Shown here piece after piece: positions 16,141 through 24,960 of a stretch of DNA of 64,000 nucleotides. How positions within the stretch are numbered: the first letter of the stretch is position 1; the number at the start of each line of letters is the position of its first letter. Source of the DNA: an uncultured candidate division Zixibacteria bacterium (GTDB lineage Bacteria > Zixibacteria > MSB-5A5 > GN15 > FEB-12); assembly GCA_963806185.1 (NCBI GenBank), contig CAWDXE010000006.1:128001-192000 (forward strand), given 5' to 3'. Position numbers and translations under genes: made by a program. The notes under the pieces were generated by a model. It did no database searches and had not been told where the DNA came from. It saw only the letters and a list, made by a program, of their open reading frames with translations.

Positions 16141-18417
16141 ATGCCGCAGATCAGAGTTCGGATCCGATTCAGTTGTCGCAGCAGATGCGTGCTCGCGCTG
16201 GTGTATGCGCTTTTATGGCTCACGGCGCCGACGAGTACATATGCCCAATCCTGCTGTGAAAGCGCCACCGGCAACCTCGATTGTGAAGAGATGTCCATTC
16301 CCGACATCGCCGACCTCACCATCCTCGTCGATCACCTCTTCCTCACCTTCACCCCGCTCTGCTGTGAGGCCGAGGGGAATGTCGATGGCAGCGCCGACGG
16401 CGTGATTGACATCGCCGATCTCCAGGCCCTGATCGAGAATCTCTTTATCAGTTTTGCGGAGACCTCGCCGTGCGATATGGAACGCGTCGTAACCGACTCG
16501 ACCCGGCTGGCGATCGTCCGTATCGTTGCCCCGGTCGCAGACTCATTACTGCGTCACAGTCTCCACTTTGGTGAAGACCTGCGCGATTTTCTTTCCACCA
16601 TCCCCCGATTCGAAGCGACCGGGTACGACACGGCCACACAGAGCGTATGGGGAAGGTTCGTCGACGGCACGCTTTATGTCGCCGTCGACAATTTTGCGCC
16701 TTCCACTGACAGCGGTATGTCGACGCTCATATCATCTGCCTCGACGCCTCCGCGCGTGTCATCACCGCCAGGAATGGCATCCATCGCGAAACGTACAAAC
16801 ACTGCTCCCGCCGGCCTGCCCTGGTCGACCTCCGTGCGCTCACTGGTCACGCTCGACAGCACTTTTCGGCCCGGCAATGAGGCGATTGAGACTATGCTCC
16901 AGGCCAACGGCTACACCGTTGTTTCGCGCGATGCGTCCGTCGACGGACTGCTTCACGTGGGGGGCGATGGCGTTTTCTATTTTATGACTCACGGCGGCCA
17001 CGCACACTTGCGCTATGGTCGGGAGACCTTTGCCCTGGAGACCACGACACTCTGTACGGAGTCAACCGTTGCCGTCTATCACACGGGGCTGGAAACAGGT
17101 TCCCTGGCGATCATGCAGGTGATGGATCGCGCGCGCCTTACTTCTCAGCTGCGCTTAGCCATCACCACCGATTTCGTGATTGCCCACTGGAATGACTTCG
17201 CCCCCAACGCGATGGTCTTCATCAACACCGGCGGCATTCTCGCTCCGCAGGGTTTGTCCCTTCGGGAGATTCTTTTCGAAAAGAAAGCGTCCGCGTGTTT
17301 CGGTTGGACCGGCCCGATCGGTGCTGATGCCGCCAATTTCGTCGCCTCATTCTTGTTTGATCGCCTGCTCGGCGCCAACGAAATCGAACCAAAAGAAACT
17401 CCGGCCCAACGTGCCTTCGACTATCAGCACATCTATCAGGATCTCGTCTCACGCGCTTTGCATCAATACACCCCCGGCGACAAAACTCCGGGTACGACAA
17501 CATTTCAGGTTGATGCCGGCCCCGGCGATTTCGGCCTGCTCACACCAAGCATCCGCCGGCTATCGATCGACGCTCATGACGTCATGTCAGTGACCGGCTT
17601 CTGCGGAGACAATCCCGGCGCCGCAGGACGCCTGCTCGTGAATGACACATCGCTCCCGGTGTTGTCGTGGGAACCGGGTCTCATTCGCGTGCAACTGCCC
17701 GACTCCGGCCTTGGCGCCGTTGGCCCGGTCGCCATCGAGATCGATCCCCGCTCAAACGGCGGCGCAACACCCGCCATTCGTCGAAGCAACATTGTTCACC
17801 TCACCGCGTGGGAAGGCTCTATGACCTACACCCATACCGATCTCGGCACTCTCAAGTACACGATCGATTCAGACATCCGCCTTCGCGCCGATCTGCATCC
17901 GTACCGCGACGAACCGCATACCGTTCCCCTTCTTCCACCTGTCGACGTCGTTGGATCGCTGGCCACAAGCGCCGACATATCCGCCGCCGGCACACACACG
18001 ATGACCACGGGAGATTCTTCGATCACCATCAAATGGTCGGGCGGCTGCACGGTGCCGGCCGCTGCAATCGAATCGGCTGACGGTCAGTTTGTTGCCGGTG
18101 TGTTTGATGCACAGAACTACTTGCTGAACTTGCGACTTTCCATGAATGGCGCCGATAGTTGCATCACCGCCACCACCCTGCTTAATTCCGGCGATTCAAC
18201 GCACCGCTTCCTCACCGCCACAATCGATTCCACTATATATGATGATAAACCAGGTCTGATTTTTCACCTGCCCTTGGAAGTTAATTGGGATATTCAGTCC
18301 GGAATTCGCCAAAGCATTGTTCCGTCACTCGTTGACCCATCGAAATCCATGAGCATCAGGCTCCAGTGGAACACGCTTTCAGCCCAGTACCCTCCGCACC
18401 CTGACGCTCCCCGGTAG
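16141..18417 (+). CDS. Secreted protein with N-terminal dockerin-like domain and IPT/TIG-like domain
   Basis: Signal peptide, then CC...DIADLTILVDHLFLTF..CC..GNVDG..DIADLQALIENLFISF..C; central THGG region; SW...IRVQLP...GPV IPT-like strands. Confidence 0.7.
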   Translation: MPQIRVRIRFSCRSRCVLALVYALLWLTAPTSTYAQSCCESATGNLDCEEMSIPDIADLTILVDHLFLTFTPLCCEAEGNVDGSADGVIDIADLQALIENLFISFAETSPCDMERVVTDSTRLAIVRIVAPVADSLLRHSLHFGEDLRDFLSTIPRFEATGYDTATQSVWGRFVDGTLYVAVDNFAPSTDSGMSTLISSASTPPRVSSPPGMASIAKRTNTAPAGLPWSTSVRSLVTLDSTFRPGNEAIETMLQANGYTVVSRDASVDGLLHVGGDGVFYFMTHGGHAHLRYGRETFALETTTLCTESTVAVYHTGLETGSLAIMQVMDRARLTSQLRLAITTDFVIAHWNDFAPNAMVFINTGGILAPQGLSLREILFEKKASACFGWTGPIGADAANFVASFLFDRLLGANEIEPKETPAQRAFDYQHIYQDLVSRALHQYTPGDKTPGTTTFQVDAGPGDFGLLTPSIRRLSIDAHDVMSVTGFCGDNPGAAGRLLVNDTSLPVLSWEPGLIRVQLPDSGLGAVGPVAIEIDPRSNGGATPAIRRSNIVHLTAWEGSMTYTHTDLGTLKYTIDSDIRLRADLHPYRDEPHTVPLLPPVDVVGSLATSADISAAGTHTMTTGDSSITIKWSGGCTVPAAAIESADGQFVAGVFDAQNYLLNLRLSMNGADSCITATTLLNSGDSTHRFLTATIDSTIYDDKPGLIFHLPLEVNWDIQSGIRQSIVPSLVDPSKSMSIRLQWNTLSAQYPPHPDAPR

Positions 18418-20404: not shown

Positions 20405-20423
20405 GCACGCCAGTCGACACTTT

Positions 20424-20926
20424 GTCATCGTGAATCATTCCCCGCTTCGTCATCCTGAATCATCCTCCCGCCTCGTCATCCTGAATCATTCCTATGATTC
20501 AGGATCTCAATGTTCACCGAATCGCCAAACAAGTCATCCCCGCCCTCCCATTTGTCATTCCCGCGAAAGCGGGAATCCAGGGTAGGGATTAGCCGGTCCG
20601 TGACCTCGTCGGTGATGCTGTAGAGACTCTGCAAACACCCCACCGCGTAGACGGTGGGGTCCGGATGGAGGACGAGGCTGGCGCACGAGGCGTACGCCAG
20701 CCATGGGATGAAGAGAGCTGAGAGATTGCCACGGCGCGAAACGCGCCTCGCAATGACTGCGACGAGATAATGGAGCGAGCAGGGAAAGTACGTGATAAAC
20801 GAAAGTGTTAAGATTGCTTCGTCGCGTTGGGAAACGCTCCTCGCAATGAGTATTGATGCGGTACGTCGCACTGCCCAGGACCTGACTCTACGAAGATGGC
20901 CGGCGCACGAGACGTACGCCGGCCAC
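20424..20926. repeat. Dense multi-family REP-like cluster
   Basis: gtcatcctgaatcat x3 ending in a full hairpin (20424-20508); gtcattcccgcgaaagcgggaatccag (20554-20580); ccccaccg hairpin (20637); ggcgcacgag.cgtacgcc (about 20678 and 20898); gattgc...ctcgcaatga (20722, 20810). Confidence 0.85.
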
Positions 20927-20948
20927 CGAAATCAATCGCTCTTCATCC

Positions 20949-22568: not shown

Positions 22569-22713
22569 GACGGACTGCTTTCTGAAATATGGTTAAACGA
22601 CAACGTCTAATTTTGGGGCAATGTAGCAAAGGGGACCGAGAGGGGCAAGGGGGGAATGGAAAGGGCGGGGAAGTGGTTGCGTTTTAGGCTGTTAAGGGAA
22701 ATAGGCGAGTAGA

Positions 22714-22883
22714 GTCATCGCGAGGCTCGCTTCGCGCCGTGGCGATCTTTCAGTTCATTCAATGGCTGGCGTACGTCCCGTGCGCCAGCACCGTTCACCA
22801 TTCGTACCCCACCGTCTATGCGGTGGGGTATCTGAAAGCCTGGCCCACTGAAGATACCCCACCGTAAATCGGTGGGGTACGGA
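22714..22883. repeat. REP-like cluster: composite module plus REP doublet
   Basis: 22714-22829 is an inverted copy of 20637-20757; 22803-22883 is a doublet also found inverted at 40334-40413. Confidence 0.85.
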
Positions 22884-23081
22884 GTAGAGCGGTTATCGGA
22901 AACAGATTTTGAGGTGTGCTAGCGGGTGGTTGAAGTGGAGAGAGTAAAATGAACCAGCGTGATTTGAAAATGTGATATTTTGACCCATACATTCGGTGTA
23001 TCGTTCGACTTCAACTTGTCGGCGGAATGTATGATCTGTAATTCCGAAAATGTCTTTCCATTGCACCTTCGCCCTTCCCAC

Positions 23082-23204
23082 AACGTCACCCCCGCCTTCC
23101 CCACAACGTCACCCCCGCCTTCCCCAAAACGTCACCCCCGCCTCCCCCAAAACGTCACCCCCGCCTCCCCCAAAACGTCACCCCCGCCTTGAGCGGGGGC
23201 CCAT
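23082..23204 (+). repeat. 23-bp tandem repeat (4 units) ending in a full REP hairpin
   Basis: aacgtcacccccgcct(t/c)cccca(c/a) at 23082, 23105, 23128, 23151; at 23174 it continues as aacgtcacccccgccttgagcgggggcccat. Confidence 0.95.
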
Positions 23205-23530
23205 CAGGATCGTAACGCGATGTACTACGTTTACGTCATGACGAATCGCCGTCACGGCACGCTCTATGTCGGCATGACCAACGACCTGATCAAGCGGGTG
23301 GGTCAGCACAAGCAGAACATGGCCGACGGATTCACCAGCAAGTGGGGCCTCCATACGCTTGTATATTTCGAGATGATCGAGCACGCGTACGAGGCTATTC
23401 AGCGCGAGAAGCGATTCAAGAAGTGGAATCGTAGCTGGAAAGTGCAGCTCATTGATGAAAACAACCCCGACTGGGCGGACTTGTACCCAGAGATTTTGGG
23501 AATGGGCCCCCGGTCAAGCCGGGGGTGACA
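23176..23530. mobile_element. Putative REP-flanked GIY-YIG element
   Basis: Inverted 28-bp REP copies (23177-23204 and 23502-23529) enclose only the nuclease gene. Mobility is inferred, not shown. Confidence 0.55.
23220..23528 (+). CDS. Small stand-alone GIY-YIG nuclease (UPF0213/YhbQ-like)
   Basis: YYVYVM..TLYVGMTNDL.KR..QH, EAIQREKRFKKW.RSWK..LI..NPDW.DL. Confidence 0.92.
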   Translation: MYYVYVMTNRRHGTLYVGMTNDLIKRVGQHKQNMADGFTSKWGLHTLVYFEMIEHAYEAIQREKRFKKWNRSWKVQLIDENNPDWADLYPEILGMGPRSSRG

Positions 23531-23547
23531 TTGGGGCGGCATCGTTC

Positions 23548-23589
23548 CGTCAGGTCCTGCGCCGAGTCTGCGAGGCGTGTGACCAGACG
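23548..23589. repeat. 42-bp imperfect palindrome, inverted partner at 24816-24857
   Basis: Reverse complement matches 24816-24857 at 38/42 positions. Confidence 0.8.
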
Positions 23590-23611: not shown

Positions 23612-24671
23612 TCACCCCTCCGCCACCACCCTCGCATATAACTGCGTCAGCGTTCCCCCATACCTCTCCCACGTGAATTCGCGCGCGCGATGCGTGCCGG
23701 CGGCGATCAGGGCGTGGCGATACGGTTGATCATCGAGCAGGCGGCGGAGCGCCTCGGTGCTCGCTGAGGGTTCGTCGGGTGACACCAACACACCCGCGTC
23801 GCCGGCCACCTCGGCACAACTGCTTCGGTCCGACGTTATCACCGGCGAGCCAGCCGCCATCGCCTCCAACACCGGCATGCCAAACCCCTCCTCCCACGAC
23901 GGCAACAAGGTCGCGGTTGCGTGTTGGTATAGCGCAGTCAGGTCGGCCTGCGCCAGACGCGAAAAGCGGATAAGCCGCTCGGACGGAAAACGGGCCAAAT
24001 CGCGCACCGCGATATCGTCGTACCCAAACCCCGGTTCCCCTACGATCACCAGCGACAGATTTTTCAGCGGCATGACGGCATCGACAATATGCCCAAGATT
24101 CTTTCGGTTTTCGATTCGCCCCACAAACAGCACGTACGACTGCGACAAGACCGGTCGGACCGGTGCGCTGATGTCGGCGTCGGTCGGAATCGACGGGATA
24201 CTCACCCCCAGCGGGATCGCCACACATTTGTCGGGGGCGACCAGATCAAGTTCGAGCAATTTGCGGCGGGTCCATTCGCTGTCGGCGATAATCAGGTCGG
24301 AACGGAAGATATCGTTGCGCATGCGCACTTCCAGCTTCTTCTGGAACGGCGCAGGCTGGTACGGATTCGGGATAGAGCGACCAGACATCGTGCGTGGTGT
24401 AGATGACTTTCTCGCTTCGCACGGACGGGAGGCGATGGCACAGGGCATGGACAATATCGTAACGGGGTGACCGGAAGCGGCTCAACAGGCCGGTTTGTTG
24501 GACGGGGATGTTTTGCACTTTCACGTTGTTCGGATCGCCGCGACGATAGAGGGCGGTAGGGCGCAGATCAGGGTGTGAGGCGGCCATCCGCAGAGTGTGA
24601 TGGCAGACCTGCGCGATGCCGCCGTAGGGCGAGACGGCGAGTGAGGTGACCTCGAAGGCGATGTTGAGCAT
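23612..24671 (-). CDS. GT4 glycosyltransferase (MtfB-like), split by a +1 frameshift at about 24370
   Basis: N-terminal ORF ...IYTTHDVWSLYP joins NPYQPAPF... of the second ORF if one G of ggg (24369-24371) is removed; FVGRIENRKN, EGFGMPVLEAMAAG. Confidence 0.85.
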
Positions 24672-24762: not shown

Positions 24763-24960
24763 GTAGGACAGGATCCCCGCTTCTTAGCGGGTGATCCTGA
24801 CGTCCTATTCTCAAGCGTCAGGTCACACGCCTCGCGGACTCGGCGCACGACTTGACGCAACGCAGGCGTGGCGCACGGGACGTACGCCACGCACGGAGGA
24901 TTCACGTCGGGCTGAGCCTTCGACTTCGTCATGGACAAACTCCGTCGAGGCCGGTCGTCG
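24763..24960. repeat. REP-like cluster
   Basis: GTAG-tagged hairpin (24763-24807), 42-bp element (24816-24857), gtggcgcacgggacgtacgccac (about 24868-24890), cttcgacttcg-type element (about 24905-24960). Confidence 0.7.

Follow-up and report, generated by a model that had tools for sequence, protein, structure and literature searches.

The analysed window is a 64,000-nt stretch of DNA from a 3.6-Mb, 82%-complete assembly, in which the first-pass annotation had described positions 23082..23530 as a GIY-YIG nuclease gene enclosed by an inverted pair of CGTC-type REPs. The elements identified at the locus are listed below.

23073..23175, + strand: array in which four half-hairpins follow one another with a period of 23, each made up of a C/T-rich leader, a GTCA tag and a 5' arm; it flanks the left hairpin at its tag side
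23085, 23108, 23131 and 23154, + strand: tags of the four half-hairpins, whose spacers make up a stepwise series starting at the outer flank
23176..23204, + strand: left CGTC-tagged hairpin of SRM type, 7-bp stem and 5-nt loop (genome repeat matches, folding)
23206..23209, + strand: weak candidate for a ribosome-binding site (AGGA), 10 nt upstream of the ATG, read from sequence only
23220..23528, + strand: gene for a single-domain GIY-YIG nuclease of 102 aa, assigned to the Ssn family (Pfam, alignment)
23502..23530, - strand: right TGTC-tagged hairpin, inverted, with a G-C closing-pair variant (genome repeat matches, SRM pattern, folding)

The left hairpin ends 15 nt before the ATG (23220), and the last codons of the gene overlap the right hairpin, the tag of which supplies the TGA stop codon at 23526-23528, as first described. 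The earlier statements that the two hairpins are inverted with their tags pointing outward from the gene, and that the left 28-mer at 23177-23204 and the right 28-mer at 23502-23529 differ solely at the loop-closing pair (C-G vs. G-C, one compensatory pair), were also confirmed. Each hairpin folds with a 7-bp stem and a 5-nt loop at approximately -10 kcal/mol (DNA parameters), with modest folding z-scores of -2.4 and -1.8. The four half-hairpins (tags 23085-23154) lie within the interval described earlier and had been overlooked. Four sequencing runs gave scattered short pieces here; one 151-nt read contig from a single run, too thin to count at depth 2, skips 23098-23169, which corresponds to about three half-units. 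A promoter scan at the locus returned one site against 0.6 expected, and no terminator was found there.

The 102-aa ORF matches the Pfam GIY-YIG domain (PF01541) with 56.9 bits (cut-off 22.6) and no other Pfam domain; none of the NCBIfam profiles scored above its cut-off. Chenal et al. (2025; PMC11893778) describe Ssn nucleases as small single-domain GIY-YIG proteins (<150 aa; CDD cd10448) with similarity to SsnA at E<1e-10 over >75% of their length and SRM hairpins on both gene sides. The 102-aa protein lies within this size range. In a tblastn comparison, it showed about 45-46.7% identity over 88% coverage (E 1e-23) to the Neisseria gonorrhoeae orthologue, which stood in for N. meningitidis SsnA in the family-threshold comparison and whose orthology was deduced, in an unannotated record, from residue spacing and NTS flanks; the similarity thus exceeds the family threshold. 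Residues Y5, Y16, and E63 correspond to SsnA Y6, Y17, and E64, the catalytic residues mutated by Chenal et al., are invariant in the alignment, and are equally spaced. Moreover, the protein is 51.6% identical to the homologue in Azospirillum lipoferum 4B, one of the 29 SRM-defining genomes of Chenal et al. The right hairpin fits the SRM pattern of Chenal et al. at every position, and the left hairpin falls outside the strict pattern, by one mismatch on our reading, yet belongs to the same family, so that SRM hairpins occupy both gene sides. These sequence comparisons indicate, almost beyond doubt as regards Ssn membership, that the locus is an Ssn-family nuclease gene with its cognate tagged hairpin on both sides, as two copies inverted relative to each other.

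In the N. gonorrhoeae record, the start codon of the ssnA orthologue (positions 995-1273) is not in the reading frame of the remaining gene, and the flank of the gene shows a tag-side half-copy near 880-910. No close relative of the 102-aa protein was found in the PDB, where the weak matches were 1zg2 and 1ywl (E 0.007 and 0.03). These UPF0213/YhbQ-like proteins are likewise single-domain GIY-YIG proteins whose size is similar, but the similarity is weak and the match ends at about residue 79, omitting the C-terminal NP.W.DL segment that is kept in Ssn. A phage collection of 50,697 records yielded no match at 1e-8, and the 33 records labelled 'plasmid' are mostly large replicons.

Published work on this family shows that CGTC-tagged hairpins lie on both gene sides in 42% of Ssn homologues, that SsnA binding requires the hairpin to be ssDNA and is followed by a cut upstream of the tag, and that this binding depends critically on the C after the palindrome (PMC11893778). 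The 20-nt product obtained from the NTS75 oligo places the cut 5 nt before the G of the tag. Furthermore, four Ssn homologues cut ssDNA 5' of the tag and hairpin in a sequence- and strand-specific manner and left dsDNA and RNA uncut, and what the first-pass annotation had supposed, that such a nuclease recognises or cuts the tagged hairpin, is thus already published for these homologues. The sole in vivo role shown in that article is the cutting of incoming DNA and lowering of transformation in Neisseria; its discussion likens NTS-ssnA-NTS to an insertion sequence and names the IS200 and REP-RAYT parallel, with mobilisation unproven. The SRM-ssn-SRM flanking and the REP/RAYT analogy are both reported there, whereas the first-pass annotation had taken the arrangement to be undescribed. 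Both the system and the mobile-element hypothesis are therefore already in print (2025), and the locus is an ordinary one, one more Ssn/SRM unit among thousands.

Like the published Ssn/NTS-SRM loci, the present one encodes a single-domain GIY-YIG protein of ~100 aa in which Tyr/Tyr/Glu are kept, and it is flanked by YGTC hairpins that are dispersed in the genome and carry a C after the palindrome. Unlike them, it has a stem and a loop of its own sequence, with a run of C in the stem, 5 nt in the loop and an A-C mismatch at the base, and a stop codon inside a hairpin; single tag-out copies hug the gene where the Neisseria and Azospirillum loci have dimers or clusters. A term search of the available supplements of PMC11893778 did not find the host phylum. 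The hairpins also agree with the CGTC REPs defined by Di Nocera et al. (2013; PMC3733652), a superfamily that includes Neisseria dRS3 and is characterised by a YGTC tag, a short stem, a 4-5-nt loop, a CCA-type tail, and dispersal; here, these features are represented by a 7-bp stem plus an A.T/C base position, a 5-nt loop, a CCA tail, and 22 copies. Di Nocera et al. found no dedicated transposase, the gap to which the first-pass annotation had alluded, and they are not cited by name in the available text of the Ssn article. The arrangement is also like that of the REPtron (RAYT/TnpA(REP) with GTAG REPs; PMC8266576), in that inverted tagged hairpins flank the enzyme gene and the hairpin with its tag is recognised in ssDNA and cut outside the hairpin, as predicted for the nuclease here. 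Unlike in the REPtron, the only Pfam domain is GIY-YIG, not an HUH/Y1 tyrosine transposase, and the flanking tags are CGTC/TGTC rather than GTAG. Strand transfer by HUH transposases relies on a covalent bond to tyrosine that is retained after cutting (PMC8266576), and this phosphotyrosine and strand-transfer chemistry is a RAYT trait that Ssn is not known to share.

The left hairpin has 22 matches in the genome within 6 substitutions, and family statistics were derived from the 21 copies within 4 substitutions. The G-C loop-closing variant of the right hairpin occurs in 1 of 21 copies and is unique to this locus. Both-side stem changes were found at pairs 1, 2, and 7 in 4, 5, and 1 copies, respectively, with T-A at pair 1 in 4/21 and G-C at pair 2 in 5/21, three of the latter coming from one repeated cluster. 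Stem pair 5 shows 2 wobbles, and 3 broken cells occur in pairs 1-2; the stem-base A-C mismatch is present in 18 copies and the C after the palindrome in all 21. The lone swap between the two flanking hairpins had been read as a sign that the hairpin structure is selected. A single stem swap can come from one mutation plus palindrome-templated correction, and the lone C-G/G-C swap therefore shows no selection by itself. Support for the stem comes from the family, through the swaps that other copies carry at pairs 1 and 2, and not from the one at the locus.

More than 100 GTCA-tagged hairpins are present in this genome, in which the published SRM pattern is weakly enriched (47 vs. 23-38 in 5 shuffles). 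The genome contains only one gene of the present nuclease clade and four Ssn-like genes in all, with three hairpin types; each of the three additional genes is enclosed by a different hairpin pair of its own. A 27-copy hairpin family with a 10-bp stem encloses no Ssn gene in this 82%-complete assembly, and a distant GIY-YIG gene (contig C5:47789-47983) has a related hairpin type on one side only. Across the genome, GTCA-tagged hairpins are preceded by a variable C/T-rich leader at -11 to -4, with a pyrimidine fraction of 0.64-0.85 (~0.5 beyond -12). The leader is also found in 67 elements without a half-copy, and it could be a target preference, decayed half-copies, or added bases.

The association between nuclease and hairpin was evaluated at 31 homologue loci outside this genome (29 best matches from related genomes and 2 from a contig scan). 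Tag-out hairpins flank 29/31 loci on either side and 23/31 on both sides, compared with 2 of 216 displaced background windows; the figure of 23/31 is optimistic, as the flank classes were defined after the flanks had been viewed, and the loci are best matches per genome from kin that are not independent. The enrichment that the first-pass annotation had suggested looking for was thus present, and nuclease and hairpins form a matched pair. In addition, a branch of 26 rows (99/97) in a 38-row nuclease tree, whose bootstrap was still unconverged and which includes two long-branch rows, contains all 22 rows labelled with the short hairpin. The rest of this branch comprises 3 unlabelled rows and 1 mislabelled short hairpin (L005), and the 12 rows outside it have other hairpin types or none (0/12 short hairpins). 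The nuclease clade tracks hairpin type.

A close homologue (E<=1e-25) was detected in 105 of 285 genomes. When these genomes, which include kin and are thus not independent, were grouped by count of the exact short hairpin, a close homologue was found in 19/117 without the hairpin, 20/61 with 1-4 copies, and 66/107 with 5 or more. The remaining 41 of the 107 hairpin-rich genomes had no match at E<=1e-25, in assemblies that are incomplete and with a single query.

The 102-aa protein is predicted, with high probability, to cut its own hairpin. By analogy with Neisseria SsnA, the left-hairpin cut is expected between 23171 and 23172 on the + strand and the right-hairpin cut between 23535 and 23534 on the - strand, which would place both cuts just outside the unit on opposite strands. 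In the mechanism we propose, the Ssn enzyme would recognise the hairpin in DNA that is single-stranded and make a cut ~5 nt to the 5' side of the GTC tag, host polymerase or recombination would act on the cut end, and host repair of the cuts would spread the hairpins and the whole unit. GIY-YIG nucleases hydrolyse DNA, and no strand-transfer chemistry is known in Ssn; spreading would therefore need host repair. The tag-side half-hairpin arrays may represent the scar of such repair, formed as the cut end re-primes at the hairpin loop.

The half-hairpin arrays are polar. A tag-side half-copy accompanies 39/126 full GTCA-tagged hairpins of this genome, and a tail-side half-copy none (0/126). By hairpin family, the tag/tail counts were 25/0 of 39, 8/1 of 46, 12/0 of 27, and 2/0 of 25. 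Four RAYT-type repeat families gave 0/0 (35, 42, 44, and 100 matches), although the tail end of one (R2) is loosely defined and another (R4) is palindromic and was counted on both strands. Exact patterns in 285 genomes gave 114 tag-side matches in 47 genomes and 1 tail-side match, the latter count being lowered somewhat because the tail is less conserved than the tag. Most half-copies stop at the arm or 1-3 nt into the loop. The half-copies thus lie on the side that SsnA cuts, a position suggestive of cut-and-repair in which the end re-primes at the loop. No mention of tag-side half-arrays was found in the available text of the Ssn and CGTC articles (PMC11893778 and PMC3733652) or by literature searches, in which these two articles were the only ones to bear on the repeats.

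The spacers between half-copies are 7-13 nt long and C/T-rich, and the outermost ones are exact flank copies in 5/20 and 2/23 arrays. In this genome, similarity to the outer flank is higher for the spacers than for shuffled pairs (p about 0.02); the corresponding cross-genome p value is confounded by composition. A purely non-templated origin of the spacers found no support, since they partly resemble the flank. Half-arrays per hairpin were as frequent in genomes with a detected close homologue (69/1349) as in those without (34/639); this comparison gave the cut-and-repair reading no support, although a difference could be masked by Ssn genes that were lost or unassembled. Another GTCA family also has a half-hairpin array (window 20416-20600, period 25-26), which precedes its full hairpin; a short hairpin with a half-copy of its own follows.

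The signs of movement are indirect. None of the pruA loci of 29 relatives (0/29, some loci being cut short) carries the nuclease gene within 1.5 kb; the neighbouring glycosyltransferase is likewise absent from all 29, and synteny is low at these distances. Among 30 nuclease loci, clearly orthologous neighbours were found for only one pair, from the same genus and at the same site (L006/L007). The Ssn gene of Azospirillum lipoferum 4B lies, with two hairpin dimers, between sufB and sufC. The search for an empty site of the present unit found no same-genus genome among 60 relatives. For two related units, congeners (G140 and G123) have adjacent flanks with no nuclease at the same site; a precise empty site was not found in these congeners, where the flanks are 64-90% identical and more DNA differs, and the junctions are unreadable because the flanks are too diverged.

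Several readings of these data were compared. A chance origin, in which two common repeats landed around an ordinary small GIY-YIG gene, might be suggested by the repeat-rich intergenic region, with its several other repeat families, and by the abundance of GTCA-tagged hairpins in the genome. This reading has practically no probability left and is refuted by the same tag-out pair at 23/31 homologue loci against 2/216 background windows and by the published both-side flanking (PMC11893778). It is also quite improbable that the CGTC hairpins are spread by RAYTs or plain replication slippage, with one-sided arrays arising because the C-rich leader shares microhomology with the C-rich arm or loop, and with the nuclease only cutting. 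The genome does contain six RAYT-like genes (Y1_Tnp matches), the array at the locus is a stepwise tandem series with flank-like spacers, the C/T-rich leader occurs even in elements without a half-copy, arrays are equally frequent without a detected Ssn gene, and slippage through C-rich microhomology is possible. However, the six RAYT-like genes are all at loci other than that of the nuclease gene and are flanked by other, mostly GTAG/GTAC-type repeats, with no GTCA hairpins in 220 nt on each side, in agreement with Di Nocera et al. (2013; PMC3733652). Moreover, untagged hairpins show no polarity (half-copies 5 vs. 5 of 596), families without a C-run arm are polar too (12 vs. 0 of 27), and exact flank copies are limited to the few outermost spacers noted above. 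One RAYT-like gene sits within a long tandem array of whole repeats.

A more serious, although still unlikely, alternative is that the host retains the nuclease as an ssDNA restriction or recombination modulator, much as Neisseria does, with incoming or exposed ssDNA being cut at the hairpins, that its origin is marked or its regulation provided by the flanking copies, and that the repeats now spread mainly by other means. Deletion of ssnA in N. meningitidis leads to 5-fold more transformation with NTS-bearing DNA (PMC11893778), and the single gene of this clade in the genome, the independence of half-array frequency from a detected gene, and the same-genus pair that retains the unit at the same site point in the same direction. 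The patchy presence in 105/285 genomes looks selfish by contrast, and the differing sites in nearly all genomes compared, the several paralogues each with its own hairpin pair, and the insertion inside the suf operon of Azospirillum also argue against a purely host-kept gene. The two roles are compatible with each other. We consider the probable overall explanation to be an Ssn unit that cuts at its hairpin and is likely spread by host repair. For the narrower claim that Ssn cutting drives the spread of these repeats, the balance tips only slightly in favour, and the first-pass proposal of a REPtron-like unit in which the nuclease spreads the hairpin is kept as a hypothesis. More tentatively, Ssn enzymes might be the missing mobilisers of CGTC-type REPs, acting without transposase chemistry and leaving one-sided arrays as a readable scar.

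For the question of how CGTC REPs multiply, the one-sided half-arrays, which are frequent in this genome, give a countable readout for the cut-and-repair model. If this model is true, each paralogue-hairpin pair within a genome would be a separate selfish replicator. The present genome is a handy test bed, with four Ssn-like genes, three hairpin types, and six RAYTs with unrelated repeats as controls. In addition, the new hairpin sequence could offer another ssDNA-cutting specificity for tools.

Several further observations were made near the unit and elsewhere in the genome. The intergenic region of the nuclease unit holds several further repeat families. Mosaic repeat clusters at window positions 22713-22880 and 20631-20930, on either side of a pruA-like aldehyde dehydrogenase gene, mix Ssn-type and RAYT-type repeats and are linked by an 81-nt inverted match. 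Another palindromic element, a 47-nt inverted pair (89%) at 23543-23589 and 24816-24862, brackets the region of the glycosyltransferase gene (23612-24454). A 758-aa protein encoded at window positions 16141-18417 has no Pfam match. Outside the window, a different small GIY-YIG gene (contig C5:189656-190050) begins just past a tRNA-Met gene, at a distance of a few bases, and has a near-copy of the tRNA-Met 3' half behind it, with no GTCA hairpins; it looks like a minimal element integrated at the tRNA.
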